DNA of 32,000 bases from Dickeya dadantii NCPPB 898 (GCF_000406145.1 NZ_CM001976.1:3071337-3103336), one strand, 5' to 3'; shown: positions 4,932 through 32,000, numbered from the stretch's first letter. Notes: a model not told the origin generated them from the letters alone. Translations and numbers: made by a program.

Positions 4932-5009
4932 GAACGGGATATCAAAAACAAAGTTCATGCATTGCGCATCCGGCAATATAATTTCATCACTGTGTAATTA
5001 TTAATACGA

Positions 5010-5552: not shown

Positions 5553-5662
5553 ATTAAATCGCCTCCCTTACCAACATGAATATATATTCCGGATGCTAAC
5601 AGCCAAGTACCCCGATGCGCCGTATTTCCCATACGCCACAGTCGATTAAAATTAGAAACAGT

Positions 5663-7931: not shown

Positions 7932-7953
7932 CCACTCATTACGTTTTTAGACA

Positions 7954-7996
7954 GTGCTGCAACACTTTCGATAGTGCTTCGATAATGCCGCAGCAC
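7954..7996. repeat. nested inverted and direct repeats in the NRPS-3/P450 intergenic gap
   Basis: A 7-bp inverted repeat, GTGCTGC (7954-7960) and GCAGCAC (7990-7996), encloses two TTCGATARTG copies (7967-7976 and 7978-7987) with an 11-bp period. Confidence 0.4.
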
Positions 7997-8059
7997 ATGG
8001 CCGCAGAAGGGGCCTATTGACGAATTCCGGCACCTTCCATGGTACGCGGACGCAAGCCT

Positions 8060-13783: not shown

Positions 13784-17271
<3,488 letters not shown>

Positions 17272-17390: not shown

Positions 17391-20300
17391 TCACAGGCGA
17401 GTCTCCGCAAGCTCGATGGTTCTGGCCGCAAGGTCTGCCAGAATAGGCGTGTCAAAAAGTGTGCGTATCTCGATGCTGAGCCCTCTTCGACGCAACTGTT
17501 CAATCAAACGCACGGCTAGCAGCGAATAGCCGCCGAGTTCAAAAAAGTGGTCCTGACGTCCGATCCGCTCGACACCCAGAAGTTCTTCCCAGATAGACGC
17601 CATGGTGATTTCCATGCTGCCCTGTGGCGGAACATACGCGCGCCGGGCGAAGGACATCTCATCCGGCGGCACCAGGGCGTTACGGTCTATCTTGCCATTC
17701 GGCGTCAGCGGTAAAGATTTGAGCGTCACGAAGGCGGACGGGACCATATAATCCGGCAACGTATCCTGAAGGTGCTTACGTAACGCCTTACGGCTAAACA
17801 GGGTCTGTACCAGACCTTTGAGCGTCGCCGCGTGTTCCAGCGCCGGCAACGCATTCTCAGGCACGATCCAATCGATCAAACAGGCCACCTCGTTCACACC
17901 GGCCTCCTGTAGCTTCTCCGCCACGGACAGTGCGGATTCCGGCGTACCAATAAATGACAGCTCGCGGGTATAGCGCTTGAAAGCGAACTCCAGCATGCTG
18001 CGTTTATCCGCGCTGGGGAGCGTATCGAGGTGAATGTTCTGCTCTTTGAGCCAGCCCGAAAGTAAACTGAGGTGCCCTTCCAGATAATCAAGGAACGGCC
18101 CTTTCGCCTGTTCCAACACCTCGTCAAGGTTCTCCCCCAGGTAGGTATGAATCATCACCGTCACCGTGCCGGTGCGGGGATCGAATCCCGCGTTTTCACG
18201 CGCCGTGCGGTATATCTCGATATTTTTAGCCAGCTTCTCGATATTCTGCGTGAGCATGTGGGTCAGCAAATGCGCCCCGCTGCGGCCGGCATACTCAAAG
18301 GTTTCCGATGCACCGGCGGCGGTTACCCAAATCGGCAGTTGCTTTTGCACCGGCGCGGGGTAAATCCGGACTGAAATGTCCTCCCCATGACTATCCCGGC
18401 GGGAAACACTGCCGCCCTGCCACAGCGTTTTCAGCTCCTCAATGCCTTTCTGCATCAATTCGCGGCGCTCATCGTAATTCTGCGGCGCCAGGACAAAGTC
18501 CTGCTTATTCCAGCCAGAAGCGACGCCGATGCCGACGCGGCCGTTCGACAGGTTGTCGAGTATCGCCCAGTCTTCCGCCACGCGGAGCGTATCGTGCAAC
18601 GGCAGCACCACGCTGCCGGGACGCAGCTGGATATGGCGTGTTCTGGCCAACAGCGAGGCGCTTAACAGCGCTGGATTGGCGAACAGCCCCCCGACGCGGT
18701 GGAAGTGACGTTCCGGCGTCCACACGGCGGTGAAACCGTGTTTATCACCAAACTCCGCCACCTCCGCGTAATGGTTATAAGCCTGTACGGCATCGCTGCT
18801 GGCGCCGAAGAAGAACAGGCTAAAATCGAGGTTGTCACTGTGGGCCGATGCCTCTGCCACATACTCTTCGGTGGCGCCGGGAACCACATACGCCACCAGC
18901 CGCGTCTCCCCGGAGATATCTTCTCTGGCGACCACCACCGCTTCACGCACCCAGGGATGGCTCAACAACCGCGCTTCGATTTCACCCAGTTCGATACGAT
19001 GCCCACGCAACTTCAGCTGATGGTCGGTACGCCCGAGGAAAATCAGGCGGCCATCGGCCATAAACTGCGCGAAATCCCCGGTACGATAGAGACGAGCCGC
19101 CGGATCGGTTGAGAACGGATCGGAGATAAAACGTTCGGCGGTCAGCTCTGGACGCTGGTGATAACCACGGGCAACCCCGTCGCCGCCGATATACAACTCC
19201 CCGATAGCGCCCATCGGCACCGGTTTGCCATGCTTATCCAGCAGATAGACTTGCGTGTTGGCAATCGGGCGGCCTATCGACTGGTTGTATTGCGTGACGT
19301 CCTCTGCATTGACGCGATTGCAGGTTGACCACACCGTGGTTTCCGTCGGCCCGTAGAGGTTCCACAATGACTCGCCGAAGGCATGCAAACGCGTCGCCAA
19401 ATCGCTGGGCAGCGCTTCGCCGCCGCAAAGGATCTTCAGTTGCTTGTGCGGTGTGGCGTCGGTATCCACCAGCAAGCGCCAGGTGGTCGGCGTGGCTTGC
19501 ATGATGGTGATGTTCAGGGTTTGCAACAGGTTAAGCAGCGCGTGAGGATCCATCGCCTGACTGCGGCTCGCCAGCACAATCGACGCGCCCGTCATCAACG
19601 GCAGATACAGCTCAAGCCCGGCAATATCAAATGAGATGCTGGTGACCGAGAGCAAACAATCTTCGGCGCCGAGGTTGAACAGTGCCTGCATCCCGCTCAG
19701 AAAATTGACCACCTGACGATGCTCAACCATCACCCCTTTCGGCTTGCCGGTAGAACCCGAGGTGTAAATCACGTAAGCCAGGTGGCTGGCGTTGAGCGTC
19801 GCCACATCGGGGTTGCCGCCAGGCAGTTCTTCCCAACGAGCGCCATCACGCTCCAGATCGACCACCGTGACATCACTGCCGGTCGTCGCCCCAAAGACGT
19901 CGCGTCCACGCTGGTCAACCACCAGTACCTTAGGCGTGGCATCCTCAAGAATATAAGCCAGCCGTGTGGTGGGATATTCAGGGTCGAGCGGCACGTAGGC
20001 CCCGCCGGCTTTGAGGGTCGCCAGCAAAGCTACCAGCATCGTTTCAGTGCGTTCCGTACACACCGCTACGCGCGTATCCGGCCTCACCCCCTGGGCTATC
20101 AAATGGTGAGCAAGACGGTTGGCACGCTGATTAAGCTCGGCATAGCTGAGGCGAACGTTCCCCATTTGCAGCGCCAGCGCCTGTGGTCGTTGTTCGACCT
20201 GCCACTCGAACAACTGATGGATCGTCGCCGTCGCCGGGAACGGCACCGCGGTATCATTCCAGGTTTTCAGCAGATGCCGGCGCTCTTCCGGCGGCAGAAT

Positions 20301-23300
20301 ATTGAGTTCATACAGCGGCATTGGCGCGGCCGCCGGAACCCCATCGGCTTCAAGCGCCGCCACCAGGCTACTGATGCTCTGGTGGAAGTAGCCAAACAGG
20401 CGCGCACAAGAAAGCGACTCAATCGCCTGAACGCCAATATCAAACCCATCGCCGAAGTCATCGACAGAGACAGAGATCGGGTAGTTGGTGCGCTCTTCAA
20501 ATCCGTGCCATACCACGCCATCAAATTCGATATCACCTAACACATCAATGTCGGTCGGGCGGTTGCGGCGGTAGTTGAACACGGCGCTGAACATCGGCGT
20601 CGGCGCCACAATCCCACTACTTTGTTGAGCCAGCGACAAGGTGGCGTGTTCATGTTTGATCAGCGCGGTGAGGCGCTGATGCGTCTGGCGCACCGCATCG
20701 GCGGCATAAACCTCGCCGACATCAAGCCGCAACGGCAGCGTCTTGATGCAAGGGCCCATGATTTTGTCACTGTTCTCACCGTGCATACGCCCGGACAGGA
20801 CCGTACCGAACACCACCGTATCGCTGCCGCAGGCAGCGCTTAGGACTCGCGCCCAGCTCAAATGGCACAGGCTACTCACGCTGACGCCGAGGCGGCGAGC
20901 CTGAGCGCGCAGCCGTTGAGCCAGCGGCGCTTCAAGCGAGCGCCGTGTTTCACCGATCCGCTGGCCTTTAAGGTGGCCGTTCTTGAGATTAAACGGCACC
21001 GACGGTTCGGTGATGTCCGCCAGCATGTCGGTGAAAAACGCCGATTGCTGTTGGGTATCGTTACGGCGCTGCAACTGCGCCACGTGATGACGAAATGGCA
21101 ATGCCGCCGGCAAACGCGCTCCCTTGTCATGGAGGAACGCCTGAATGTCGGAGAGCAAAATCTGTAGCGAGGCAATGTCATCCACCAAATGATGGATATA
21201 CATCAAGGCTTCCCAGCGGGCCTGCGCTTCATCATAGGCCACCACCATGTGCAGCAACGGCGGCTGCGTGAGGTCGATACGGTTGACGTGAGGATCAAAG
21301 CGCGCCTTCATCTGCTCAACGACCGGGCCATCCTGAGCATCAAACGTGAGCGCCGCAACATGCAAACGCGCGTGGCGGAGCACGACCTGCACAGGCGTTT
21401 CCACCCCTTCCCAGATAAACGCGGTGCGCAAGATATCATGACGATCAACCACGCATTGGATAGCCTCAAGATAGCGATCCAGCGTCTGCCGGTGCGTAAA
21501 CGACAGATGACCACACTGAAGGTAAGGGTCGCCGGCTTCATCGAACAGATGGTGGACCAGAATGCCTTCCTGCAACGGCGCCAGCGCATAGATATCCTGA
21601 ATATTGGCGATGCCTCCAGGTATGCGCGAAACGATCTGGTCTATTTGCTGTTGAGAAAGCGACACTAACGGGAAAAGCGCGGGATGAAGCGCGGTGGTCG
21701 CCGGCGTGACCACATTCTCCGGGATGACGAACGCTGAGGAAGCATCGTCCTCAAGCCTGATTTGCGCAGCAAGATCGGCCAGAACGGGATGCGCGAAGAG
21801 GGTGGGCACATCGGTATACAACTGCTGCTCACGGAGCGCTGCCTGCAGTTGCATCGCCAGCAATGAATGCCCGCCCAGTTCGAAGAAATTGTCCTGCCGC
21901 CCGACCTGCTCAACGCCGAGCATTGTCCGCCACAGCTGCGCCAGAATAGATTCCGTACCGGCGTTCGGCGCTTCAAAGTCGCGCTGCACGTAAGCACTGT
22001 CGTCCGGTAGCGGCAAGGCTTTGCGGTCGATCTTGCCATTGGCCGTCAGCGGCAGCGATTCCATCACCACAAACGCCGCCGGGATCATATAGCTGGGCAG
22101 TTGCGTGGCGAGCACCTCGCGCCATTGCGCCAGCGCGCCATTGCCGCACGTCGCCTCTGGCACCACATAGGCCACCAGACGGGCCTCGCCACCATCGGGC
22201 GTAATGCCGATGACGGTGGCGTCTTTGATGTGCTCAAGCGCCGCAATACGCGACTCGATTTCACCAAGCTCAATGCGATACCCGCTCAGTTTGATTTGGT
22301 GATCGCGGCGGCCAAGAAACTCAATGCGGCCATCGTCAAACCAGCGCCCGATATCGCCGGTACGGTAGACTCTGGCCCCGGCGACCCAGGGGTCGGCAAT
22401 AAACTGCTGGGCCGTCAGTTCAGGGCGATTCATGTATCCCACCGCGACGCCTTCGCCGCCGATCCAGATTTCACCCGCCATACCCGGCGCGCAAAGCTGA
22501 CCCAGATTATCGACCACGTACATACGGGTATTGGCGATCGGTCGCCCAATACTCAGGCGAGTATCCTGGCTGTGCTCAAAACCGCGCATCCAGGCCGACG
22601 ACATAATGGTGGTTTCCGTCGGGCCGTAGCCATTGATGTAACGGCAGCGCTCGCTCCAGCGTTCAATCAGCCCGAGCGACGGCGCCGACCCCGCGGTCAG
22701 AATGGTCATGCCTTCAGGCACGCGTGCGGGATCCAGGTGCGTGAGATACGGCGGCGGGAAGGCCGAGAAACGAATGTCGTTTTCGGTCATGTACGCCATC
22801 AACGCGGGCGGGTTCTGAATCAACGCATTCGACAGCAGGTGCAGTTCGCAGCCGCGCGTCAAGGTACCGAAAATCTCGCCCGCCGAGGCATCAAAGGTAT
22901 AGGGCGCGAACTGGGTGATCGGTTGCCCGGCGCTAAAAATCCCGATGTGTTCGCACCAGGCACAGAAATTGATCAGGCTGCGATGCGCGATCTCTACGCC
23001 TTTCGGCGTACCGGTGGTGCCAGAGGTATAGATGATGTAGGCAATAGTGTGCGAATCGATAGTGTGCGAATAGATAGTCTCAGCGGGGTTATCCTCACGC
23101 GACCCGCCATCCGTTTGCGCCTGCTCCAGATAATCCTCAACCAACAGCAAGGTGCTGCTTTCGTCCGCGCTGAAACTCGACCGATCGGCCCGGCTGGTCA
23201 GCGTCCAGCGCACTTGCGCATCGTTAATGATGAACGCGCGACGCTCGCCCGGCGCATCCAGGCCGACAGGCACATAAGCGGCGCCCAGCTTGATGATGCC

Positions 23301-24311
23301 CAGCATGGCGGCGATCAGGTTCGGCGTTTTGTCCATACTCAGCACGATACGATCGCCCTGGGTCACACCGACGCGGCGCAGCCCTGCCGCAATCCGTTCG
23401 GCACGTTCGGCCAACTGCCGATAGCTTAACCGCACGTCGCCTGCCACCAGCGCGGTGGCCTCGTTTCTGGCCGCCACTTGCTCGGCAAACAGCGCATAGA
23501 GCGAACGATCCAACGCCACGTCTAGCTCAGTCGCATTCCACTCATGAATAACGCGTTCAATTTCTGCGTTACTGAGCAGCGACTGTTCACCCAGCGTGCG
23601 CTCACTGCGCTGTACAAAGCTGGACAACAGCTGCTGCAGGCGATTGAGAATGTTATGCGCATCCGCTTCGGTCATGTCGCCGTGGCGATAATGCAGCGCT
23701 AATGACAGCGTGGCCCCGGTCCGCACAATAAGATGCAGCGGCACGTGCGGCGCGCGATGCTCATTTTCCGAGCCCGACTCGTCATACACACTGATCAGCG
23801 AGTCGAAAAGCGGTGGATTCGATGGGGAGCCTACTCCGGGCGAAAGGGCATCAGGTATCGGTTCGGCATGGCGCTGATGCTGCTCAAACACTGAGGCGAT
23901 ATCGTGAAACCAGTCGCGCAACGCGAGACTGGCATCAATGTGCATGCGTAGCGGCAAGGCGTGGTATTCCCCCCCGTCATGGGCTGGGAACCGTTTGCCG
24001 AACAGCACCTCATCCTCACCGCTGTACTTGCTCAGCAACAAACCCCATGCCGCCGTCATCAGCACGTCCCCGGTGACGGACTCACGCTGCGCCAGCGCCA
24101 GCAGTTCGTTACTCAACGCCCGCTCGACCTGGGAGACGAGCACGCGGACGTCCTGCGCAGAGGAGGAAGCGGCGGTCCCGGCATCCTCGCGCTCAATAGC
24201 ATTAACAAGGCTGACGTTTGCCGTTCTTGACGCCCCGGTAAGGTATCGCTGCCAATACGCCGCGGCGGTGTCCTTACGCGACAAGAGCATATTCTCCTGC
24301 ATGATAGCCAT
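17391..24311 (-). CDS. NRPS-1: orphan C-lobe-A(unknown)-PCP-C-A(Gly)::LLM monooxygenase-PCP with docking tail (2306 aa)
   Basis: Motifs present: AYIIYTSGTTGTPKG, NGYGPTETT, YRTGD, PLTANGKIDRKAL; FFELGGHSL; PLQEGILVHH, RHDILRTAF, HHLVDDIAS; LAYVIYTSGSTGKPKG, NLYGPTETT, LRGHRIELGEIE; DFSLFFFG...GFTAVWTPERHF; LPLTPNGKIDRNAL; FFELGGYSL. The tail is ARTIELAETRL. GGGAG lies about 9 nt upstream of the ATG. Confidence 0.95.
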   Translation of the reverse strand: MAIMQENMLLSRKDTAAAYWQRYLTGASRTANVSLVNAIEREDAGTAASSSAQDVRVLVSQVERALSNELLALAQRESVTGDVLMTAAWGLLLSKYSGEDEVLFGKRFPAHDGGEYHALPLRMHIDASLALRDWFHDIASVFEQHQRHAEPIPDALSPGVGSPSNPPLFDSLISVYDESGSENEHRAPHVPLHLIVRTGATLSLALHYRHGDMTEADAHNILNRLQQLLSSFVQRSERTLGEQSLLSNAEIERVIHEWNATELDVALDRSLYALFAEQVAARNEATALVAGDVRLSYRQLAERAERIAAGLRRVGVTQGDRIVLSMDKTPNLIAAMLGIIKLGAAYVPVGLDAPGERRAFIINDAQVRWTLTSRADRSSFSADESSTLLLVEDYLEQAQTDGGSREDNPAETIYSHTIDSHTIAYIIYTSGTTGTPKGVEIAHRSLINFCAWCEHIGIFSAGQPITQFAPYTFDASAGEIFGTLTRGCELHLLSNALIQNPPALMAYMTENDIRFSAFPPPYLTHLDPARVPEGMTILTAGSAPSLGLIERWSERCRYINGYGPTETTIMSSAWMRGFEHSQDTRLSIGRPIANTRMYVVDNLGQLCAPGMAGEIWIGGEGVAVGYMNRPELTAQQFIADPWVAGARVYRTGDIGRWFDDGRIEFLGRRDHQIKLSGYRIELGEIESRIAALEHIKDATVIGITPDGGEARLVAYVVPEATCGNGALAQWREVLATQLPSYMIPAAFVVMESLPLTANGKIDRKALPLPDDSAYVQRDFEAPNAGTESILAQLWRTMLGVEQVGRQDNFFELGGHSLLAMQLQAALREQQLYTDVPTLFAHPVLADLAAQIRLEDDASSAFVIPENVVTPATTALHPALFPLVSLSQQQIDQIVSRIPGGIANIQDIYALAPLQEGILVHHLFDEAGDPYLQCGHLSFTHRQTLDRYLEAIQCVVDRHDILRTAFIWEGVETPVQVVLRHARLHVAALTFDAQDGPVVEQMKARFDPHVNRIDLTQPPLLHMVVAYDEAQARWEALMYIHHLVDDIASLQILLSDIQAFLHDKGARLPAALPFRHHVAQLQRRNDTQQQSAFFTDMLADITEPSVPFNLKNGHLKGQRIGETRRSLEAPLAQRLRAQARRLGVSVSSLCHLSWARVLSAACGSDTVVFGTVLSGRMHGENSDKIMGPCIKTLPLRLDVGEVYAADAVRQTHQRLTALIKHEHATLSLAQQSSGIVAPTPMFSAVFNYRRNRPTDIDVLGDIEFDGVVWHGFEERTNYPISVSVDDFGDGFDIGVQAIESLSCARLFGYFHQSISSLVAALEADGVPAAAPMPLYELNILPPEERRHLLKTWNDTAVPFPATATIHQLFEWQVEQRPQALALQMGNVRLSYAELNQRANRLAHHLIAQGVRPDTRVAVCTERTETMLVALLATLKAGGAYVPLDPEYPTTRLAYILEDATPKVLVVDQRGRDVFGATTGSDVTVVDLERDGARWEELPGGNPDVATLNASHLAYVIYTSGSTGKPKGVMVEHRQVVNFLSGMQALFNLGAEDCLLSVTSISFDIAGLELYLPLMTGASIVLASRSQAMDPHALLNLLQTLNITIMQATPTTWRLLVDTDATPHKQLKILCGGEALPSDLATRLHAFGESLWNLYGPTETTVWSTCNRVNAEDVTQYNQSIGRPIANTQVYLLDKHGKPVPMGAIGELYIGGDGVARGYHQRPELTAERFISDPFSTDPAARLYRTGDFAQFMADGRLIFLGRTDHQLKLRGHRIELGEIEARLLSHPWVREAVVVAREDISGETRLVAYVVPGATEEYVAEASAHSDNLDFSLFFFGASSDAVQAYNHYAEVAEFGDKHGFTAVWTPERHFHRVGGLFANPALLSASLLARTRHIQLRPGSVVLPLHDTLRVAEDWAILDNLSNGRVGIGVASGWNKQDFVLAPQNYDERRELMQKGIEELKTLWQGGSVSRRDSHGEDISVRIYPAPVQKQLPIWVTAAGASETFEYAGRSGAHLLTHMLTQNIEKLAKNIEIYRTARENAGFDPRTGTVTVMIHTYLGENLDEVLEQAKGPFLDYLEGHLSLLSGWLKEQNIHLDTLPSADKRSMLEFAFKRYTRELSFIGTPESALSVAEKLQEAGVNEVACLIDWIVPENALPALEHAATLKGLVQTLFSRKALRKHLQDTLPDYMVPSAFVTLKSLPLTPNGKIDRNALVPPDEMSFARRAYVPPQGSMEITMASIWEELLGVERIGRQDHFFELGGYSLLAVRLIEQLRRRGLSIEIRTLFDTPILADLAARTIELAETRL
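17421..17639 (-). other. NRPS-1 domain: PCP2 (core GGYSL instead of the usual GGHSL)
   Basis: aa ~2225-2297: QDHFFELGGYSLLAVRLIEQL. Confidence 0.85.
17667..20294 (-). other. NRPS-1 domain: interrupted adenylation domain A2, hand-read code DILQLGLVWK (Gly)
   Basis: aa ~1340-2215. Positions read: D1562 I1563 L1566 Q1605 L1628 G1630 L1652 V1660 W1661 K2207. This matches the canonical Gly code DILQLGLIWK at 9/10. Cores A1-A8 lie before the insert and A10 after it. Confidence 0.8.
17802..18839 (-). other. NRPS-1 domain: luciferase-like (FMN-dependent) monooxygenase inserted in A2
   Basis: aa ~1825-2170 (about 345 aa): NLDFSLFFFGASS, AEFGDKHGFTAVWTPERHF, GRVGIGVASGW, PIWVTAAG. It sits between RLVAYVV and LPDYMVPSAFV, the same position as the MOx insert of MtaG/MelG-type modules. 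Confidence 0.8.
20307..21728 (-). other. NRPS-1 domain: condensation (same paralogue family)
   Basis: aa ~862-1335: IQDIYALAPLQEGILVHH, DPYLQ, RHDILRTAF, YIHHLVDDIAS, VVFGTVLSGR, FNYRRN. Confidence 0.9.
21756..21980 (-). other. NRPS-1 domain: PCP1
   Basis: aa ~778-852: QDNFFELGGHSLLAMQLQAAL. Confidence 0.9.
22008..23549 (-). other. NRPS-1 domain: adenylation A1, hand-read code DAGALAGIMK (no confident match)
   Basis: aa ~255-768. Positions read: D474 A475 G478 A517 L538 A540 G561 I569 M570 K760. The scaffold is strikingly GrsA-PheA-like (PPPYLTHLDP, ILTAGSAPS), but 239 is Gly and 278 is Ala. Confidence 0.6.
23043..23078. repeat. in-frame 15-bp tandem duplication inside A1
   Basis: AGTGTGCGAATCGAT (23046-23060) and AGTGTGCGAATAGAT (23061-23075), 14/15 identical, with partial copies on both sides. 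They encode TIYSH-TIDSH-TIA immediately before core A3 (YIIYTSGTTG). Confidence 0.85.
23562..24311 (-). other. NRPS-1 N-terminal orphan C-lobe (C-terminal half of a condensation domain, no HHxxxD)
   Basis: aa 1-250 begin at the YWxxxL motif (AAAYWQRYL) and continue with LMTAAWGLLLSKYSGEDEVLFG, ALPLRM and PLFDSLISVY. No N-lobe and no catalytic His motif are present. Confidence 0.7.
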
Positions 24312-24314: not shown

Positions 24315-26201
24315 TTATGCTCCCTCTGTGACAACTTGCCTGGAATGGTTTTTTAAAACATTCAGTAAGTTGGATACGCTTTCGGCGTTCCTGCCGAATT
24401 GATTGATGATCGCGCCGTGCTGAATACGCGCGGCAAAACCGTATTTGATGAAGGTTGACAGAGTGCCGGTTGGGCTGAGATCGACAAAAAACGTCTGGTT
24501 TTTCTCAGCCAACGCCTGCATTACGCCGTAGAAATCGACAGGCTCGCGCAAGACTCGCCAGAAATACTCGCTGTCCCATTGTTCAACCGCAGTACCTAAC
24601 ATGGCGGAGTACACCGGCATTACGGGGGCGTTTTTCGGCAAGGTATCGACCAAGGCTCGGAAATCGTGCTCGATAGCCGCTATCCCGGACGAGTGGAAGG
24701 GTTGCTCAACCGGCAGCAGCATCGAGATAATATTCTGCTGCGTCAGGCGCTGTTTGAGAGCCGACAGGCTCGCCATAGCACCGCTGACCACAAAATTATT
24801 CTGGAAGTTAATACTGGCTAACTCGGCGCCCTGATAAAGCGCGGCATTGGCATGGAAGTGCGCCACCGGCGCCAGCACGCTCATCATCCCGCCGCCGGCG
24901 GTTTTGTTACTCAGCAAGTGCGCCTGAGACACCACCAGTTTCATGGCGTCATCCAGCGTCAATACACCGGCCACGACAGCCGCGATGCACTCGCCCAGGC
25001 TGTATCCCAGCACGGCGTCAGGTTCGATCCCTTCTGCTTTGAGCATACCGGTCAGGCTGACGCCAATGCTGAGCAACGCCACATTGGACTGCGCCACATC
25101 AGAGAACGGCAGGTGGTGGCGGGCGTCGTCATACAGCGCCTCCAGAAGACCGTGGCCGGTGTGTTGACGACACAGGGCGTCACACCTGTCCATCTGGCTG
25201 CGAAAGGTACTATTACGACGATAAAGCTCACGCCCCATGCCGTAATACTGTGACCCCTGCCCCCCGAACATAAACACCACACGAGGGGTGGCGGATGGTG
25301 CCGCTGGCGCTCTGGCAACGTTTTTTACCGTTGGCTTACCCGGCAACGCCATCGGCTGTGCTTTTATTTTCTCAAACAGGCTGGTCAGTACCTGCCCGGG
25401 TCCGATTTCGTGCTGTTTAACTTCGCCGGACGCCAGCAGCCGCGACAGACTTTCGTACCAACGAACGGGATGACTTATCTGGCGCGTTAACAAGTCAAGA
25501 TAATCGGATTCTGGATAATCGAGCGCTGTGTAGTTGGAAATAACCCGCGCATTGAGCGGATTGAAAGTAAAGCGTTGCGCAAATTGTGCAAACTGCGCTT
25601 CGATATCTCGCATATAGCGAGAGTGAAAAGCCGCACTCACGTTTAGCCTGACGTAGCGTGCGCCGGCATCCGTAAACAGCGTTTCGCAGGCAACGATGTC
25701 GTCATGAAGACCCGAAATGACGATTTGCTGGGCACTGTTGATGTTGGCGATATCAATGCCGCTAAACGGCGACGCAGCGAGAAGCTCCGCGACCCGGTTC
25801 AGCTCGATGCCCACGATGGCGGCCATCGCGCCGCGCGGCGCTTTCGACATCAACATGCCGCGCTCTCTGACCAGCGCGACGCCGGTTGCAAAATCAAACG
25901 CCCCCGCGGCAAACAGCGCGGCAAACTCCCCCAGACTATGACCCGCGTAGCAATCCGGCGCATCCAATCCGTTTTGTCGACTGGCGAGAACCCCGAGCGC
26001 TGAGACAACAAACAAAGCCGGCTGGGTGAACATCGTCTCACCCAGCACACCCTGAGGATCGTTGAGGCATAGCTCGCGAATTGAGAAACCGAGCACCTCA
26101 TCGGCCTCGCTGACGAGCCTGGGGAAACGCTCGAACAGCGCATTCCCCATCCCTTTGTGCTGCGATCCCTGACCAGGAAATACCCAAATTGAAGAAGACA
26201 T
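24315..26201 (-). CDS. tandem trans-acting acyltransferase AT1-AT2 (628 aa from the ATG at 26201)
   Basis: There are two FabD-like halves. I prefer the ATG at 26201 (AGGAG 5 nt upstream; MSSSIWVFPGQGSQ) over the GTG at 26234. The stop lies 3 nt before the NRPS-1 ATG. Confidence 0.9.
   Translation of the reverse strand: MSSSIWVFPGQGSQHKGMGNALFERFPRLVSEADEVLGFSIRELCLNDPQGVLGETMFTQPALFVVSALGVLASRQNGLDAPDCYAGHSLGEFAALFAAGAFDFATGVALVRERGMLMSKAPRGAMAAIVGIELNRVAELLAASPFSGIDIANINSAQQIVISGLHDDIVACETLFTDAGARYVRLNVSAAFHSRYMRDIEAQFAQFAQRFTFNPLNARVISNYTALDYPESDYLDLLTRQISHPVRWYESLSRLLASGEVKQHEIGPGQVLTSLFEKIKAQPMALPGKPTVKNVARAPAAPSATPRVVFMFGGQGSQYYGMGRELYRRNSTFRSQMDRCDALCRQHTGHGLLEALYDDARHHLPFSDVAQSNVALLSIGVSLTGMLKAEGIEPDAVLGYSLGECIAAVVAGVLTLDDAMKLVVSQAHLLSNKTAGGGMMSVLAPVAHFHANAALYQGAELASINFQNNFVVSGAMASLSALKQRLTQQNIISMLLPVEQPFHSSGIAAIEHDFRALVDTLPKNAPVMPVYSAMLGTAVEQWDSEYFWRVLREPVDFYGVMQALAEKNQTFFVDLSPTGTLSTFIKYGFAARIQHGAIINQFGRNAESVSNLLNVLKNHSRQVVTEGA
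24360..25283 (-). other. AT2: AT-like domain lacking the malonyl-binding Arg (Gln instead)
   Basis: Motifs: VVFMFGGQGSQ, the GYSLGE nucleophile, QPFHS. The position 25 residues after the Ser (FabD R117) is Gln in LVVSQAHLL. Confidence 0.75.
25359..26189 (-). other. AT1: FabD-like malonyl-CoA:ACP transacylase domain
   Basis: Motifs: IWVFPGQGSQ, GHSLGE, Arg at Ser+25 (LVRERG), SAAFHS. Confidence 0.8.
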
Positions 26202-26272
26202 AAATCTCCTATTACTGTTCCCTTGGACTGTCACTTAACGTTGCTTGTTTATCCCAACAGCGACTCGTTAAT

Positions 26273-26542
26273 TCAGGACTTGATTGCTTCCGCCGGTAGA
26301 TGGGCTTCAATCGTGCCGATCAAATCCCCGAGCGTGTAAATCCCGCGCTTGTCACCGTCGTTTACCTTGATGTGGAGCCGCTTCTCAATCTCGTACCAGG
26401 ACTCAAGCATCTCGATCGAATCCACACCCAGTTCACCGCCGATAAATGAATCCAGGTCCACGACATCAGGGGTAAATCCGGTGTTTTTGATGCCGTTAAT
26501 AATGTCGAGAACAACGGAGAGAATGTCTTTCTGAGCGTCCAT
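26273..26542 (-). CDS. free-standing acyl carrier protein (89 aa)
   Basis: It carries the phosphopantetheine-attachment motif GGELGVDSIEMLE and has an acidic helical composition. It lies 24 nt downstream of the oxoamine synthase. Confidence 0.9.
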   Translation of the reverse strand: MDAQKDILSVVLDIINGIKNTGFTPDVVDLDSFIGGELGVDSIEMLESWYEIEKRLHIKVNDGDKRGIYTLGDLIGTIEAHLPAEAIKS

Positions 26543-26566
26543 TTCTGATTTCCTTCAGCTAATCCA

Positions 26567-27811
26567 TTAGAGCGCGTCAAACTCGCGCGCAACGTCAGTA
26601 ATAATGTCAACGGCTTGATCGATCTCTTCCCGGGTATGGGAAGACATCACGGAGATACGCAGACGTTCTTTATCAGGAGGGACCATCGGGTATTCCATGA
26701 TATTGGCGAACAGGCCGCGTTCAAAAAGACGGCGGTTTATGTTGCCCACCACGGAGATTTTCCCGAAGAAGACGGGAATGATCCCCGACTCGCCGCGAAG
26801 AATGTTGAAGCCTTTGGATTCCAGTTGGTCCTGCATGTAGCGCACGTTGTCATGCAGCAGCGCAATGCGTTCCGGCTCGCGTTCCATCACGTCCAACGCC
26901 GCGGAAATAGCCGCAATGGTCGGCTGCGCTAAACCCGAGGTAAACAGGTAAGGATAAGAGAAGTTTCGCAGCATAAAGATATGCTCGCGGCTGCCGGAGA
27001 TGAACGCGCCCTGCGCGCCGAGCGATTTGCTGCAGGTGGACATACGCAAATCAACCTGACCCAGCAGGTCTAAATGCTCAAGCGTTCCCTTGCCGGTTTG
27101 CCCTAAGGTGCCTAAGCCGTGAGCGTCATCGAGAATGGTGATGATGTCGTGCTCCCGGCAGATATCGATGTAACGCTTGAGATCGATGATCGAGCCGTCC
27201 GTAGAACGCACGCCTTCAACCGTGGAAAATATTTGCGTATGAGGTTTCAAACGCGCCCGAATTTTAGGCAACATCTGTTCAAACTCATCCAGCCGCTCGG
27301 GATCGAAGGTAAAGAACGGCACGTTGGTCATTTTGACCGCGTTGATCACGCTGGCATGGCTGTTCTGGTCATAGATGATGATATCGTTGCGATTCATCAA
27401 TCCATTCACCCAACACAGGTTCGCCATATAACCACTCGGCAGCAGCACCGCGTCTTCATGGCCGGCTAACGCCGCCAGACGCGTCTCAAGATCCCGATGT
27501 TGCCTGGTGTAACCGGAAAATGCCGGCGACCCGCCGGTACCAATACCGTATTTTTCTACCGCTTCGACTACCTTATTTTTCACATAAGGATGGTTAGCCA
27601 GACCGAGATAGCTGTTTGAACCAAACACCAATACATTTCTGAAGTCGTCGCTATGCAGGTCTTTGTACTGCATGCGCGCATCAACCGGCCCCACGCCCTG
27701 GCGTCCGAACATGAAGCCTTTTTCCAGCTCTTTCAAATAGGTGCCATAGCGTAATTTCACGCGTTCCTTGAAAGGCTTACGTTCAAGTTCGATCAGATCA
27801 TGAAAATCCAT
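26567..27811 (-). CDS. PLP-dependent alpha-oxoamine synthase (BioF / KBL / serine palmitoyltransferase family, 414 aa)
   Basis: Motifs present: FGSNSYLGL, DQNSHASVI, ILDDAHGLG, and the PLP-lysine motif STCSKSLGAQGAF. Confidence 0.92.
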   Translation of the reverse strand: MDFHDLIELERKPFKERVKLRYGTYLKELEKGFMFGRQGVGPVDARMQYKDLHSDDFRNVLVFGSNSYLGLANHPYVKNKVVEAVEKYGIGTGGSPAFSGYTRQHRDLETRLAALAGHEDAVLLPSGYMANLCWVNGLMNRNDIIIYDQNSHASVINAVKMTNVPFFTFDPERLDEFEQMLPKIRARLKPHTQIFSTVEGVRSTDGSIIDLKRYIDICREHDIITILDDAHGLGTLGQTGKGTLEHLDLLGQVDLRMSTCSKSLGAQGAFISGSREHIFMLRNFSYPYLFTSGLAQPTIAAISAALDVMEREPERIALLHDNVRYMQDQLESKGFNILRGESGIIPVFFGKISVVGNINRRLFERGLFANIMEYPMVPPDKERLRISVMSSHTREEIDQAVDIITDVAREFDAL

Positions 27812-27862
27812 TATAAAAACCTCCTTGATTATTGATTCTCTCTCAGAGAGAGATTCCGATTG

Positions 27863-28852
27863 CTAAGGCGCAATAAAACCGTTGGCCCGATACCAGGAAA
27901 CGCACTCCTCCACCATCTGGCTTAAAGAGGAAGGCTTATAGCCCAGCTCACGCTCTGCCTTGGCGCTGCTAAAGTAATAAACCCCTCCGAAGACACGCAG
28001 ACGATAGGCATCCAGCACCGGTTCGCCGCGCACCAACCAGGGCAACTTTTCCTGAAGCAGGGTTTTCAGATAGAAAGACGGATAATGGGTCTTGGGCCGT
28101 TCCGCCTTGCACGGCACGATTGATTCAATGGTGTTGATAAGCTCGCGATAGCGGACATTGGCGCCCGCAATCAGGTAGCGCTCGCCTGAGTGTCCTTTGG
28201 TTAAGGCGCTGACGTGCGCGTCACCGACATCGCCCGCGCCGCAAAAACTGGCGCCGCCCGGCGGCAGGAACGGCAGCTGGTTATAGTTCACCGCCAACAC
28301 CATGCGCCCCCACTGCATCGAATAGTCGTAGGCACCCAGCACTTCCGTCGGGTTCAGAATGACGGCGGACAAGCCGCGATCGCAGGCGCGGTACACCAGT
28401 TCCTCAGCGAGCAATTTGCTTTTGGCATAGGGGTTTTTCGCACGAAACCCCGCCAGCACGGTCTTTTCGGTCGCCTCGGCGGCGGGGTCGTTATGCGCCC
28501 CTATCGTCGAGCTGGTGCTGGTATACACCAGACGCGACACCCCGCACGCCAGCGCCGCCTCAATCACCGAGCGCGTCCCCTCAACATTGACCGCTTCCAG
28601 CAGCGGCCAGTCACGGGCGTTGCTGCTGGTATTGCCCGCGGTATGAATCACCCCGTCGTGCCCGGCCATCGCCGCTTGCAGGCGCTGGCTATCATGCAAT
28701 TCGCCGCGCACCAGGGTGACGTCGAACGATTCCAGAAAGCTCACGTTGGATGACGCTCGCACATACGCCGTAACCTGATGTCTGGCGGCGACCAAGGCTT
28801 TTATAACGTTAAGCCCAACAAATCCGTTTGCTCCGGTGATCAGTATTTTCAT
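27863..28852 (-). CDS. extended short-chain dehydrogenase/reductase, NAD(P)-dependent (epimerase / DFR-like fold, 329 aa)
   Basis: It has the Rossmann motif ILITGANGFVG and the catalytic YAKSK (YxxxK). An ATGA start/stop overlap links it to the PKS. Confidence 0.9.
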   Translation of the reverse strand: MKILITGANGFVGLNVIKALVAARHQVTAYVRASSNVSFLESFDVTLVRGELHDSQRLQAAMAGHDGVIHTAGNTSSNARDWPLLEAVNVEGTRSVIEAALACGVSRLVYTSTSSTIGAHNDPAAEATEKTVLAGFRAKNPYAKSKLLAEELVYRACDRGLSAVILNPTEVLGAYDYSMQWGRMVLAVNYNQLPFLPPGGASFCGAGDVGDAHVSALTKGHSGERYLIAGANVRYRELINTIESIVPCKAERPKTHYPSFYLKTLLQEKLPWLVRGEPVLDAYRLRVFGGVYYFSSAKAERELGYKPSSLSQMVEECVSWYRANGFIAP

Positions 28853-31800
28853 GGTGTTTGATCTTGCTGATTAAGTTTTTCAAGCGTTTTCAGGAAGGCC
28901 TTGCGCCCTTCCCCTTTGCTGCGCATAGGCAGCGCCGCCGGATTTTTATCCGGATGGTTGGCGACCCCTTCAAGCAGAATCACGAACTGCTCAAGCAGTT
29001 GATCCAGCTGCGCTATCTGGGTATCCATCCCCCGGCAGTCAAGGCGTAAAAGCACACTGTGCGCCTCAACGCTGACCACCAGCGCCACGTGCAGCCCAGG
29101 CTGAACTGCAAAGAGAGCAGAAACGGCCTGGTTCAAACCGGCCTCGTCGCCGTCAGTCAGCAAAGCAACCGCGCTATCAAACAGCGGCGCATCGCCAACC
29201 CAGCGCTCAATCCGCTCAAGCGTGGCCCCGGTATGGTCGAAACATTTTTCAAGCTGTGTTTCAACGTCTTTGAGCCAAAGCGCGGTCTTGTGACGCCCAA
29301 CCACCTGAACGCGCACGGGTATCATCTGAGGATGTTCATCATTAACCTGCCGAACCAGACCGAACTGGGAATGCCTGGCCCGCGCATGGCGATTGGTGAG
29401 AAGCGCCCAGCCAGCGGCCATCAGCGTCTCAACGGAGATCGCCTGACGCTGGGTACAGATTTGCAGGGCCGCCACCGTGTCCCGATCGATTCGCCGCTCC
29501 ACGGACAGCGTTTGCGGCGCAGACGCTTCGGCATCCTGAACCTCTGCGCCGCCAAGCAGCGCCGAAGCCATCAACGCGCCGGCCTCGTCTTGGGCGTGCG
29601 GTTCTTGGGCATGCAGTTGCTCAACCCAGAACGCCTGCAATTGCTCATCGTCTAGCGCTTCCACGTTGCGTTCATTCTGCAGGCCGGCAAACCATGCCTG
29701 CGGTACGGTAGGGGCTCCATCAGGAACCGGCAGCGCGGCGACTTCGTTGTGGCGCGTGTGCGGCGGCGGCGCGTCAAGGCGCAGCGCGGCGTAAAGATCG
29801 CAAGGTTCTTTCGCAAAGGGGTAGCCGGGGAAAGCCACGCGACGACGTAATGCCTCGTGGTGTAACAGGCCCCAGTCAATGTCGCAGCCATGCGTCCACA
29901 GTGTGGCGACTTTGGCGAGCTGCTGCGTTTGCACCAATACATGAATAAAGTGCTTACCCGCCTCGCCGGCGATCAACTGCGGGACATCTTTGGTTTCACG
30001 CACGTTGCCGTTATAAATATCCAGCTTGCTATGCTCAGAGGCCGGGCGAGCAATAAAGCATTCCAGTTTCGTCAGCAGATCATCCATGCTCGTCGCCACG
30101 ATGGCCAACCGATGATCAAGCGTGACACGCCCAATCTGGCTGGTGTAGGCCAGATCAGCGAGATGAAGCGCGCTTCCCTGCTGCGTAACAAAGTCACGCA
30201 TCTCGACGGCGTAAGCCGCCAGACGCTCCGCCCGGTGTGCCGACAGCACCACTATTTGCGGCCGGTTCTCGGCGTTATCCCTGACGACAGGTGTGTGATC
30301 ACGACTGCGCATGAGCGCCTCTTCAGGGGACTCAACCACCACAAATGCGGTAGAACCGCCCATGCCATAGGCGTTAATCCCCGCCAAACGCGTGCCTCTG
30401 GCATTGGTGCGCCATTCCTGCGCCTCGCGCGGGAACAGGAACACAGACGTCTCGTGTTCGAACGACGTATTGACGCGATCAAGGTTGACACAGGGCGACA
30501 GACGACCGTGCTGCATGCTCAACAGCACCTTAATCAATGAACAAACGCCCGATGCCGCTTCCATATGCCCAAGGTTGGCCTTGGTTCCCAACGCGCAAAA
30601 ATGTTGCGCGTGAGTGTGGCGACGCAGCGCGTTGGACAGCGCCTTCAGTTCAATCGGATCGCCCAACTCGGTCGCCGCACCGTGGCTTTCGATATAAGTC
30701 AGCTCGTTAACGTCGATACGCGCCTCGTCCAGCGCCCGAACGGCGGTTTCCTCCATCACGGCCAGATTCGGCAAATATTGCCCTGCCCCCGTGCCCGCAT
30801 GGCCGATGCTTGAACCGCGCAGCACGCCATAAATATGGTCGCCATCCGCCAGTGCGGCGCTCAGGCGCTTCAGTACCACCATGCCGCTGCCTTCGCTTGG
30901 AATCAGGCCATTGGCGCGCTCATCGAAGGTATGTTCCTTGCCGTCCGAAGAGAGCACGTTCATCTCCTGGAGCAGCATATATTTACTGGGGTGGAGGCTA
31001 AGGTTTATGCCGCCGGCGAGCGCCATATCACACTCACCACCGAGAATGGCCTTACGTGCGATGTGCACGCTCGTCAGCGATGAGGCACAGGTGGTGGCAA
31101 CGCTGAAACTCGGGCCGCGCAGATTCATCAGGAACGAAATGCGATTCGCCAGCTCACTGACGACAGAACCGGCCCCCGGATATCGACCCGTGCGGGCATA
31201 AAGTTCGGCCATGACCCAGGTGAAATCTTCATTCATCGCGCCGACATACACGCCCACTTGCTGAGACGTGAGCGCTGACGGGGTGTAACCGGCGTTCTCC
31301 AGGGCATGCCAGGCGGAACGCAGCAAAACACGCACCTGAGGATCGAGACGACTGGCTTCATCACTGCTCATGCGGAACATCTCAGGATCAAAGACATTCA
31401 CGTTGCTGAGGAAACCGCCGCGATTCACGTAACGCGGATTGCCGTTATCGTCCGGCGTGATAGCCCAACGCGCATTCGGGATGGTGGTCAGGTTCTCTTT
31501 GCCCGCCTGAATATCCGCCCAGAAATCCGCCAGATTCTCGGCGCCGGGGAACTCGCCCGCCACACCGATAATCGCCACGGCATCACTGGCGGCATTCACA
31601 CTGGCTGATAACGATGAGCGGGCAGCATGCAACCCCAAGGTATTCGTGGGCGCGTTAGGCATAGCCCGTTTGGCATAAGGCACGGCAGGCGCGTCGGCGT
31701 GATGGCTGTTCACCGTCTCTGCGGTAAGATGCGGCGGCGTCTCTGCCGGCACCTGCCGGCTCTCCTGCGTTGCGCCATAACGTTCGCACAGATACCCGGC

Positions 31801-31998
31801 CAGTTTGGCCGTGGTATTAAACTCAAACGGCGCCGTTTTCGGCAGCCCGTCATACTCTTTCTCAAGCACGGCGCGCAATTCCATCAGCATGATGGAATCC
31901 ATACCTAACTGCTCAAAGGTGGCATCCACGGCGATATCGCCGGCGGGAAGCTTGATGATGGCCGAAATACGCTCCCTCAGCGCGTTCTCGCTCTGCAT
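28849..31998 (-). CDS. trans-AT-type PKS: ACP-KS-flanking linker-orphan C-lobe (at least 1049 aa; the 5' end may be cut by the window edge)
   Basis: The ORF stays open to within 2 nt of the window end, so the ATG at 31998 may be internal. Motifs present: LGMDSIML (ACP); TTCASSL, ESHGAATELGDPIE, GTKANLGHMEAASG (KS Cys-His-His). No cis AT, KR, DH, ER or downstream ACP is present. Confidence 0.9.
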   Translation of the reverse strand: MQSENALRERISAIIKLPAGDIAVDATFEQLGMDSIMLMELRAVLEKEYDGLPKTAPFEFNTTAKLAGYLCERYGATQESRQVPAETPPHLTAETVNSHHADAPAVPYAKRAMPNAPTNTLGLHAARSSLSASVNAASDAVAIIGVAGEFPGAENLADFWADIQAGKENLTTIPNARWAITPDDNGNPRYVNRGGFLSNVNVFDPEMFRMSSDEASRLDPQVRVLLRSAWHALENAGYTPSALTSQQVGVYVGAMNEDFTWVMAELYARTGRYPGAGSVVSELANRISFLMNLRGPSFSVATTCASSLTSVHIARKAILGGECDMALAGGINLSLHPSKYMLLQEMNVLSSDGKEHTFDERANGLIPSEGSGMVVLKRLSAALADGDHIYGVLRGSSIGHAGTGAGQYLPNLAVMEETAVRALDEARIDVNELTYIESHGAATELGDPIELKALSNALRRHTHAQHFCALGTKANLGHMEAASGVCSLIKVLLSMQHGRLSPCVNLDRVNTSFEHETSVFLFPREAQEWRTNARGTRLAGINAYGMGGSTAFVVVESPEEALMRSRDHTPVVRDNAENRPQIVVLSAHRAERLAAYAVEMRDFVTQQGSALHLADLAYTSQIGRVTLDHRLAIVATSMDDLLTKLECFIARPASEHSKLDIYNGNVRETKDVPQLIAGEAGKHFIHVLVQTQQLAKVATLWTHGCDIDWGLLHHEALRRRVAFPGYPFAKEPCDLYAALRLDAPPPHTRHNEVAALPVPDGAPTVPQAWFAGLQNERNVEALDDEQLQAFWVEQLHAQEPHAQDEAGALMASALLGGAEVQDAEASAPQTLSVERRIDRDTVAALQICTQRQAISVETLMAAGWALLTNRHARARHSQFGLVRQVNDEHPQMIPVRVQVVGRHKTALWLKDVETQLEKCFDHTGATLERIERWVGDAPLFDSAVALLTDGDEAGLNQAVSALFAVQPGLHVALVVSVEAHSVLLRLDCRGMDTQIAQLDQLLEQFVILLEGVANHPDKNPAALPMRSKGEGRKAFLKTLEKLNQQDQTP
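28939..29646 (-). other. PKS C-terminal orphan C-lobe (half condensation domain, no HHxxxD)
   Basis: aa ~785-1020 start at QAFWVEQL (the YWxxxL position) and continue with LMAAGWALLTNRH, MIPVRVQV and PLFDSAVALL. No N-lobe precedes it, only a Pro-rich linker. Confidence 0.65.
29794..30267 (-). other. PKS post-KS flanking / AT-docking linker
   Basis: aa ~578-735: QIVVLSAHRAERL, LADLAYTSQIGR, LWTHGCDIDWGLL, RRVAFPGYPFAKE. This is typical of AT-less KS modules. Confidence 0.7.
30331..31584 (-). other. PKS domain: ketosynthase
   Basis: aa ~139-556 with C304, H439 and H478 present. The active-site context is ATTCASSL rather than the usual DTACSSSL. Confidence 0.9.
31765..31998 (-). other. PKS domain: N-terminal ACP
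   Basis: aa 1-78: DATFEQLGMDSIMLMELRAVL. Confidence 0.85.
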
Positions 31999-32000
31999 AT

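Follow-up and report, generated by a model that had tools for sequence, protein, structure and literature searches.

The solanimycin locus and the closest described systems

Only part of the structure and biosynthesis of solanimycin, a potent antifungal, has been solved, and the published origin of its amine rests on the label 'aminotransferase' given to one protein, SolC. We analysed a stretch of 32,000 nucleotides from Dickeya dadantii NCPPB 898 (GCF_000406145.1, NZ_CM001976.1:3071337-3103336; hereafter the window, with positions counted from its first nucleotide). Three neighbouring open reading frames (ORFs) on its minus strand, occupying exactly 26273-28852, are solB, solC and solD of the solanimycin (sol) cluster in a D. 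dadantii-like strain. The locus, its knockouts and its shunt products have already been published, and as a genome-scan discovery it is not new. The new element is that SolC is predicted from its sequence to be a carbon-carbon bond-forming alpha-oxoamine synthase (AOS), which would correct the published label. A literature search found solanimycin nowhere linked with the term 'oxoamine', SolC always being called an aminotransferase or a tailoring enzyme. The remaining value of the locus lies in this pathway correction, AOS instead of transaminase, and in the recognition of a conserved starter cassette.

The assignment to the sol cluster was made because gene order, domain content, sizes and identities all match. 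The window runs from the 3' end of solA through solL, and its gene order, domain architecture and lengths agree with the published solA-solL (Table 1, PMC9765074). SolC is 94% identical to its nearest relatives, which are Dickeya proteins, while SolI matches one D. dadantii protein at 100% identity and shares 90% identity with those that carry the NCBI name 'solanimycin biosynthesis cytochrome P450 SolI'. Window positions 1-10639 are 98.5% identical to the chromosome of D. dadantii 3937.

The closest described system is therefore the sol cluster of D. solani MK10, whose SolB, SolC and SolD are orthologous, stand in the same order and measure 329, 414-415 and 89 amino acids (aa) (PMC9765074, PMC10204066). 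What has been published on its deletions and shunt metabolites carries over directly. The cluster is transcribed as a single unit. Antifungal activity is lost in each of the in-frame deletions of solB, solC and solD, a solE deletion has no phenotype, and solI is essential (PMC9765074). Solanimycin A/B has been described as Ths-Gly(OH)-Dha5-R2, where Ths is 2-amino-3-hydroxy-hexadecahexaenoyl, Dha is dehydroalanine and R2-NH3+ is C15H30NO5+ and contains valine; the polyene amino acid is N-terminal and carboxyl-linked to Gly-Dha5-(Val-containing tail), SolG being iterative (PMC10204066). The solF deletion accumulates tetradecahexaenal, a C14 aldehyde, and the solB deletion accumulates aminomethyl ketone 6 (hexaenoyl-CH2NH2, C15H19NO, m/z 230.154), and no new product was detectable in the solC deletion (PMC10204066). 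In feeding experiments, [1,2-13C2]glycine labelled Gly and Dha heavily and left the N-terminal group essentially unlabelled, and d8-valine was incorporated with all eight deuterons; from 2H- and 13C-glycine feeding, with fragment increments described as approximate, the authors excluded glycine as the source of C1, C2 and N (PMC10204066). The D. solani literature calls SolC an aminotransferase or transaminase, whereas its sequence places it in the AOS family.

Several other pathways resemble this locus in part. Sphingofungin synthesis in fungi is the closest chemical precedent for the route that we favour below, since the polyketide synthase (PKS) SphB, the AOS SphA, which uses aminomalonate and releases the polyketide as a 2-amino-3-oxo acid, and SphF, a 3-ketoreductase that complements yeast tsc10 and acts on the ketone afterwards, lead to the same 2-amino-3-hydroxy-acid head group (PMC10936153). 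That pathway differs in being eukaryotic, in having no stand-alone acyl carrier protein (ACP) and in yielding an end product instead of a starter for a nonribosomal peptide synthetase (NRPS); a further difference is that its reductase is described as a 3-ketoreductase, whereas SolB is an extended short-chain dehydrogenase/reductase (SDR). In Pseudomonas fluorescens, SgaAB likewise releases a bacterial PKS chain through a dedicated AOS, but this system consists of two genes with a cis-acyltransferase iterative PKS, decarboxylates serine to give sphinganine, and contains neither an NRPS nor a stand-alone ACP nor an SDR gene in its cluster (PMC12134224). Escherichia coli KBL (1fc4) and Thermus ThAOS (7poa) are among the solved structures closest to SolC, although they are only 30-33% identical to it and use short acyl-CoA substrates. 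KBL illustrates that the AOS fold can release a 2-amino-3-oxo acid without decarboxylation, the product then decaying to an aminomethyl ketone. OleD, a 2-alkyl-3-oxoalkanoate reductase, is an extended SDR that acts on a free, decarboxylation-prone long-chain beta-keto acid, like the role proposed here for SolB, but SolB matches it weakly and OleD belongs to another pathway, olefin synthesis.

Bacterial sphingolipid synthesis by Spt (with an ACP), bCerS and CerR likewise combines an AOS able to use acyl-ACP with an NAD(P)-type 3-ketone reductase (PMC11087976). The original prediction, which had been made from the window sequence alone, likened the three genes to the Caulobacter spt, acp and cerR genes. 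This likeness holds for the enzyme classes and does not extend to orthology. SolC fails the serine palmitoyltransferase (SPT) models of the CFB, Beta and Alpha (alphaproteobacterial) types, with 283 bits against a cut-off of 640, 254 against 500 and 175 against 670, respectively. CerR is NDUFA9-like (PMC11087976), whereas SolB is not evidently so, NDUFA9 not being among the best 60 of its 109 Protein Data Bank (PDB) matches. The shunt product of the solB deletion has a mass that excludes serine, the SPT substrate, for SolC. No bCerS occurs in the window, where all ORFs at 3376-32000 are accounted for as sol genes.

SolC is a member of the alpha-oxoamine synthase family

The solC gene (26567..27811, minus strand) encodes an enzyme of 414 aa that depends on pyridoxal 5'-phosphate (PLP). 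In Pfam, SolC matches Aminotran_1_2 (E = 5.9e-42). This name spans the whole fold class, and the 'aminotransferase' label of SolC derives from it. The only aminotransferase family among the Pfam matches is a weak one, DegT/DnrJ/EryC1/StrS (E = 4e-5). The first 11 NCBIfam matches, at E = 4e-86 to 5e-32, belong without exception to AOS-type models: bioF at 4e-86 (289 bits), KBL at 2e-85 (287 bits), a BioF/Kbl-related model (284 bits) and SPT at 2e-84 (283/254/175 bits), with 5-aminolevulinate synthase (ALAS; 205 bits) and CqsA-type (182 bits) models in a range to 1.5e-54. The models that follow are aldolases, serine hydroxymethyltransferase and enzymes of Cys/Met metabolism at E >= 1e-7, and no aminotransferase model is found among the 21 NCBIfam matches at E <= 0.01. 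The PDB comparison gave a similar picture, with Thermus ThAOS (2e-63), Sphingobacterium SPT (1e-62), E. coli KBL (5e-59) and cysteate-C-fatty-acyltransferase (5e-53) as the best matches and a total of 50 AOS chains at E <= 1e-20; the sphingofungin enzyme SphA (9pep) is distant (8e-23).

The catalytic residues of the family are present. In alignments with E. coli Kbl and BioF, ThAOS and Sphingobacterium SPT (SmSPT), the SolC residues H152, D229, H231, S261, K262 and R385 fall on catalytic positions, among them the PLP-stacking His, the Asp and His of the D-x-H motif, the Schiff-base Lys and the carboxylate-binding Arg. The Schiff-base lysine, K262, lies in TCSKSLG at aa 259-265 (27017-27037). 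SolC has no Arg of the V/S-R-F/T motif and carries an invariant GGSPAFSGY.

SolC nevertheless falls below every equivalog cut-off. It reaches 289 bits in the BioF model TIGR00858, whose cut-off is 426.45, and 287 against 460 and 248 against 493 bits in the KBL models NF005394 and TIGR01822. It is 30% identical to E. coli Kbl, 25% to E. coli BioF and 33% each to ThAOS and SmSPT, whereas these four references are 33-43% identical to one another. In a small tree limited to the SolC family and the four references, the SolC family, 57-94% identical internally, formed its own long-branched clade. We conclude that SolC is by sequence an AOS-family enzyme but, lying below the cut-offs and in a separate clade, is not BioF, KBL or SPT. 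The original prediction was thus borne out in regarding the enzyme as other than a genuine BioF, and its assignment of the three genes to ACP, AOS and extended SDR, the motifs that it quoted and the NRPS-PKS operon setting all proved correct by Pfam, NCBIfam and motif position, at E-values well outside what chance would give.

SolB, SolD and the flanking ends of SolA and SolF

The solB gene (27863..28852, minus strand) encodes a reductase of 329 aa. It carries the features of an NAD(P)-dependent extended SDR, namely the TGxxGxxG nucleotide-binding motif as TGANGFVG at aa 6-13 (28814-28837) and the YxxxK pair as YAKSK at aa 142-146 (28415-28429). Its Pfam matches are Epimerase (2.2e-35, over profile positions 1-240 of 240) and 3Beta_HSD (6.7e-28). 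The best NCBIfam matches, namely HpnA-like (1.4e-69), sterol SdmB and OleD (2.7e-37; 129 bits against a cut-off of 580), are all below cut-off. The best PDB match is an uncharacterised oxidoreductase (3wj7, 4.8e-39), followed by cinnamoyl-CoA and dihydroflavonol reductases and NRPS reductase (R) domains.

SolD (26273..26542, minus strand; 89 aa) is a stand-alone, divergent ACP by sequence. It matches the NCBIfam ACP model at E = 1.7e-8 over profile positions 4-79 of 83, below equivalog cut-offs, and Pfam PP-binding weakly (E = 0.024). The phosphopantetheine serine lies in GVDSIE at aa 39-44 (26411-26428), with DSI at aa 41-43.

Upstream of solB, the 3' end of solA (28849..32000, minus strand) supplies the last 1049 codons of a trans-acyltransferase PKS and is open to the window edge. 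In Pfam searches this end comprises an ACP (aa 6-70), a terminal ketosynthase (KS; aa 139-506), a linker of the type found between KS and acyltransferase (AT) domains, and a tail of about 350 aa. The Cys-His-His triad of the terminal KS is intact (TTCASS, SHGAAT and NLGHME) and is kept in all cassette homologues. Two 'half-C' regions, one at the SolA C-terminus (28942-29646; Pfam Condensation E = 2.9e-4) and one at the SolF N-terminus (23532-24311; 4.9e-11), align only to the C-terminal half of the Condensation profile (about positions 191-440) and are devoid of the half with HHxxxDG. They flank the solB-solE cassette, the SolA-side copy is conserved across the family, and the two may form a docking pair. 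The specificity residues in the second, AT-like domain of SolE are atypical (PMC9765074).

SolF's first adenylation domain has an open, hydrophobic pocket

We read the codes of the adenylation (A) domains in PheA numbering, which gave canonical readings for the Gly, Ser and Val controls. In SolF, the first A domain (A1, at about 22002-23531) carries the specificity code DAGALAGIM, followed by the K of NGKIDR; the remaining A domains of the window read as canonical Gly, Ser and Val. In A1, Asp235 is kept and Gly or Ala occupies positions 239, 278, 301 and 322. Asp235 is the mark of an alpha-amino acid substrate. By its sequence, the A1 pocket is unusually open and hydrophobic, of amino-acid type and not glycine-like.

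A conserved cassette links SolC to a PKS and an NRPS in other genomes

A genome scan with SolC as query gave 36 loci, whose flanks were examined up to 10 kb. The block composed of a terminal ACP-KS with half-C tail, SolB, SolC, SolD and SolE is syntenic in 30 of the 36, except that locus L023 has no detectable SolE, and in the syntenic loci an NRPS comes after the block. The cassette spans Enterobacterales, Lysobacteraceae and other Gamma- and Betaproteobacteria: SolC is 84-90% identical in the loci of Serratia, Rouxiella, Pantoea and Erwinia, and 66-76% identical in Lysobacter, Xanthomonas, Thermomonas, Collimonas, Paraherbaspirillum, Cellvibrio, Gynuella, Alcanivoracaceae and Nevskiaceae. 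Across genera, SolC (69-77%) is far better conserved than SolB (48-59%), SolD (43-57%) and SolE (38-58%). The AOS is linked to a PKS in every examined locus that also carries SolB and SolD.

The A1-type code usually accompanies the block. A code of the form DA[GA]A[LM]A[GA][IV][LM] occurs in 23 of the 28 cassette loci with a scored A domain (24 of 29 when the frameshifted L002 is included). It lies in the first A domain after the cassette, except in L013, where it lies in the second. Outside Enterobacterales the A1 domains are only 35-50% identical to that of the window and the code is kept, while later A domains vary.

The P450 behaves differently. SolI homologues fall to 60-64% identity outside enterobacterial sol clusters, the distant ones that are named coming from Caulobacteraceae, Phenylobacterium and other Alphaproteobacteria or Pseudomonadales; judged by this taxonomic spread of named homologues, no close SolI homologue is named from the distant cassette-bearing genera. 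Because SolC persists in those genera while no named SolI homologue does, the conserved functional unit is, by this indirect test, KS, SDR, AOS, ACP and AT together with A1, and the P450 is not included.

Some related loci depart from this arrangement. In four of them (L031, L032, L033 and L035, from a Burkholderiales metagenome-assembled genome, Chitiniphilus spp. and Lautropia), a SolC-like AOS is 56-64% identical and keeps GGSPAFSGY, the NRPS context is different, and no SolB, SolD or SolE homologue was detected; Pfam places an A-thiolation (T)-condensation (C) NRPS, an ABC/FtsX/LolA-like export set, an acyl-CoA-dehydrogenase-like gene and a phosphopantetheinyl transferase beside the L032 gene. 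These enzymes may represent a second use of the SolC clade. In L002 (Rouxiella badensis DSM 100043, CP114060.1), tblastn found the solA, solD, solE and solF homologues each in two frames, which could be due to sequencing-error frameshifts or to a decaying cluster. The lysohexaenetides, hexaene lipopeptides of Lysobacter, might be the product of a cluster related to the Lysobacter loci L006-L010 and L019.

A proposed route to the N-terminal amino acid

We somewhat favour the view that the three genes, together with the terminal KS of SolA, make the N-terminal 2-amino-3-hydroxy-hexadeca-4,6,8,10,12,14-hexaenoic acid (Ths). In the proposed order of steps, SolA would build a C14 hexaenoyl thioester, for which the published shunt aldehyde provides indirect support, and the terminal KS would pass this chain to the orphan carrier SolD. 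SolC would then join the chain to a two-carbon amino donor in a PLP-dependent Claisen condensation, a reaction type suggested by its family, to release free 2-amino-3-oxo-hexadecahexaenoic acid. The carboxylate could be kept in either of two ways, KBL-like, from glycine without decarboxylation, or SphA-like, from aminomalonate with decarboxylation. SolB would reduce the 3-ketone, as the published solB-deletion product suggests, and SolF-A1 would activate the free amino acid and load T1 as the NRPS starter, which is consistent with its conserved code. The evidence tips slightly towards this sequence of off-loading from SolD by SolC, reduction by SolB and loading by SolF-A1.

The solB-deletion product carries much of the argument. 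It is exactly what decarboxylation would leave once a glycine-type unit had been added to the acyl chain, and it agrees with the prediction from sequence that SolC joins an acyl thioester and an amino acid by Claisen condensation. 2-Amino-3-oxo acids decarboxylate spontaneously, as the KBL product does to give aminoacetone. For this reason the beta-keto acid left without SolB would decarboxylate to the C15 aminomethyl ketone, hexaenoyl-CH2NH2. The proposed route would also explain the enzyme family of SolC, the orphan ACP beside the AOS, the A-T pair with which SolF starts and the kinship of SolB with OleD. If it is right, and we lean modestly that way, SolC would be no transaminase and the P450 SolI would not be needed to install the amine.

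Other donors and orders of steps were considered and rejected. Serine would give C16H21NO2 in the solB deletion, whereas C15H19NO was observed, and glycine would label serine. Alanine, as in a BioF-like reaction, gives the wrong mass. Valine is unsuitable since d8-valine keeps all eight deuterons, so that its alpha-hydrogen is never removed. A scheme with SolB as thioester reductase followed by an aldolase-type SolC was discarded because the compound that accumulates in the solB deletion has the oxidation level of a ketone, which places the action of SolC ahead of that of SolB.

Several observations weigh against the favoured route. The absent 13C-glycine label argues against glycine and serine-derived donors (PMC10204066); the 2H-glycine feeding is uninformative here, because alpha protons would exchange in an AOS reaction. 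No aminomalonate source is evident in the sol cluster. The solF deletion gives the C14 aldehyde and not free Ths, and the solC deletion gives nothing detectable (PMC10204066). Five cassette loci have no A1-type code within the sequence examined. The intact terminal KS could add malonyl on SolD to give an all-acetate C16 beta-keto thioester, which would fit the labelling. Finally, with 25-33% identity to characterised AOS enzymes and a long branch, SolC might possibly perform non-canonical chemistry.

As an AOS, SolC would offer a concrete, testable alternative origin for the sphingosine-like N-terminal amine. If true, this would describe a reusable bacterial route from PKS through AOS and reductase to an A domain, feeding long-chain beta-hydroxy-alpha-amino acids into NRPS lines, and it would supply an annotation for the conserved cassette that recurs in dozens of uncharacterised clusters, among them those of Lysobacter, Xanthomonas, Collimonas, Cellvibrio and further genera. 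Evenly balanced, in our judgement, is the broader reading in which SolC represents a distinct, widespread AOS clade that releases a trans-acyltransferase PKS polyene from a stand-alone ACP as a free 2-amino-3-oxo acid with its carboxylate kept, and that forms, with SolB and a wide-pocket A domain, a portable 'lipo-amino-acid starter' cassette, found in at least 30 species of Gamma- and Betaproteobacteria, in place of a P450/transaminase route; in view of the negative glycine labelling, the donor might be neither free glycine nor serine, aminomalonate being one example.

Alternative explanations

The published model proposes that a module devoid of a ketoreductase gives an all-acetate C16 beta-keto thioester, that SolI oxidises C2, that SolC, as a PLP/PMP transaminase, installs the amine on the carrier-bound chain and that SolB reduces C3 (Murphy et al. 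2023, PMC10204066). It agrees with the missing 13C-glycine label in the N-terminal group. A beta-ketoacyl-SolD would also be a natural intermediate, given a condensation-competent terminal KS whose sole free partner is SolD; solI is essential (PMC9765074); and the SolC clade is deep and divergent, fold-type I PLP enzymes being able in principle to transaminate. Against these points stand the matches of SolC, which are to AOS models only and to no aminotransferase model, and the apparent failure of SolI to travel with the conserved cassette. Chemical reasoning suggests that the 2,3-dioxoacyl thioester required would be very labile, and SolF A1-T1 and one PKS module would be left without a role. 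We know of no characterised member of the AOS family that is a physiological transaminase, and to our knowledge the P450/transaminase precedents cited by the authors (cyclosporin Bmt and oxaleimides) are not AOS-family enzymes. We regard the published model as possible but clearly less probable than release by SolC acting as an AOS. Fairly improbable, in our view, are non-canonical variants in which the KS condenses the C14 chain with an aminomalonyl-like extender on SolD, assisted by SolC, or in which SolC uses a carrier-bound amino acid thioester. The intact terminal KS and the orphan carrier would suit them, as would the atypical second AT-like domain of SolE (PMC9765074), and the stalling of the solF deletion at the C14 thioester fits a need for a SolF-bound partner. 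The cluster is, however, without genes for aminomalonyl-ACP synthesis according to the authors (PMC10204066). The wide, hydrophobic A1 pocket is not glycine-like, and units derived from serine or glycine would still be labelled. No precedent is known to us for an AOS whose amino acid substrate is bound to a carrier.

The original prediction had combined a decarboxylative AOS giving an alpha-aminoketone, reduction by SolB to a 1,2-amino alcohol, and acylation of the resulting amine by the NRPS tetrapeptide. Its logic of an AOS followed by a reductase stands, since this fits the published head group and the ketone of the solB deletion (PMC10204066), whereas the amino alcohol product does not, since a decarboxylative product leaves the C16 acyl unit unexplained. 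Most AOS enzymes do decarboxylate, an aminomethyl ketone does occur in the solB deletion strain, and SolH ends in C and thioesterase (TE) domains, for which an amine could serve as nucleophile; by arithmetic, an amino alcohol in ureido linkage would even be isomeric with the N-terminal group, C16H20NO2, although we judged it unlikely because SolF-A1/T1 would be left without a substrate. The joining of the amine to the peptide is contradicted by the published partial structure, in which tandem mass spectrometry places the polyene unit at the N-terminus, acyl-linked through its carboxyl to the Gly-Dha5 chain (PMC10204066). The C-terminal fragment C15H30NO5+ has a single nitrogen and all eight deuterons of d8-valine; because all eight are present, this nitrogen is that of valine, with its alpha-hydrogen kept. 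This form of the pathway is therefore, in our estimate, very unlikely. A yet smaller, almost negligible chance attaches to the idea that the three are housekeeping genes (BioF, KBL or membrane sphingolipid synthesis) merely lying inside the cluster. AOS membership would agree with it, and some homologues carry the automatic names 'glycine C-acetyltransferase' or '8-amino-7-oxononanoate synthase', but SolC lies below all equivalog cut-offs and is 25-30% identical to E. coli BioF and Kbl, the AOS is PKS-linked in every examined locus with SolB and SolD, and the window holds no ceramide synthase. The operon is also co-transcribed, and each deletion abolishes solanimycin activity (PMC9765074), in line with the expectation of the original prediction that loss of these genes would affect the cluster product.

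Gene organisation and features flanking the cluster

Every large ORF between 3376 and the end of the window is on the minus strand, and the three genes sit within this single run, flanked by the end of the trans-acyltransferase PKS on one side and by the AT-AT gene and three NRPS genes on the other. In the order of transcription solA/solB/solC/solD/solE, the junctions are a 4-base overlap and then 51, 24 and 38 bases between genes. The solE gene (24315..26234) encodes a tandem AT/AT-like (acyl hydrolase) trans-acting protein with two stretches matching Pfam Acyl_transf_1 and a fabD match at 8e-113. As listed, its ORF begins at a GTG and gives 639 aa; translation from the ATG at 26201, 11 codons downstream, would yield the published length of 628 aa, and this ATG is probably the true start. 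By Pfam, solF (17391..24311) encodes half-C, A1-T1-C-A2 (with a luciferase-like monooxygenase insert)-T2, solG (13780-17271) encodes C-A(Ser)-T, and solH (8060-13783) encodes C-A(Val)-T-C-TE. They are followed, all on the same strand, by solI (6645-7931; P450), solJ (5663-6388; metallo-beta-lactamase (MBL) fold), solK (5010-5552; MaoC hydratase) and solL (3376-4791; MATE exporter), likewise assigned by Pfam.

The sizes in the window are 2306, 1163 and 1907 aa for the three NRPS proteins, 428 for the P450, 241 for the MBL-fold protein, 180 for MaoC and 471 for MATE. In D. solani MK10 they are 5358 for SolA, 329 for SolB, 415 for SolC, 89 for SolD, 628 for SolE, 2300 for SolF, 1163 for SolG, 1908 for SolH, 428 for SolI and 241 for SolJ, with SolK and SolL following (PMC9765074).

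Base composition varies along the window. The GC content is 0.51-0.52 in solC, solD and the 3' part of solB (26001-28000) against 0.57-0.62 in the flanking PKS and NRPS genes, and it is 0.44-0.52 at positions 1-8000, rising to about 0.54-0.62 in the PKS/NRPS genes. Two tRNA genes on the minus strand, tRNA-Leu(taa) at 2891-2977 and tRNA-Cys(gca) at 2986-3059, lie about 300 bases past the end of solL. The tRNA pair and the GC shift are consistent with an acquired island.

A prophage-type lysis cassette on the plus strand (316-1717) adjoins the sol cluster. A Pfam search of four flank ORFs at 1-3400 gave no match, and PHROGs then identified the lysis genes: a holin (316-627; phrog_175, 1.6e-41), an endolysin (about 620-1105; phrog_90, 4e-60) and an Rz spanin (1102-1542), with an overlapping Rz1-like lipoprotein (1379-1717).

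The same lysis genes stand beside solL in D. dadantii 3937 (L037, CP002038.1), whose homology to the window ends sharply at position 10639, inside solH. Strain 3937 retains only the last 858 aa of SolH (T-C-TE) and solI-solL, and because only these parts remain, we conclude that it carries a remnant of the sol cluster. Directly upstream of its SolH remnant, in the position of solA-solG, lies a Wadjet-type jetABCD operon (DUF3375, JetB, SbcC-like and JetD_C).

A further observation concerns the C-terminal tail of the product. By arithmetic on the published fragment, valine and C10H20O4 (a dihydroxydecanoic acid), less one water, add up to C15H29NO5. The solanimycin tail could thus consist of valine in ester linkage with a hydroxy acid derived from a fatty acid, formed through the terminal C domain of SolH, instead of a PKS extension of valine.

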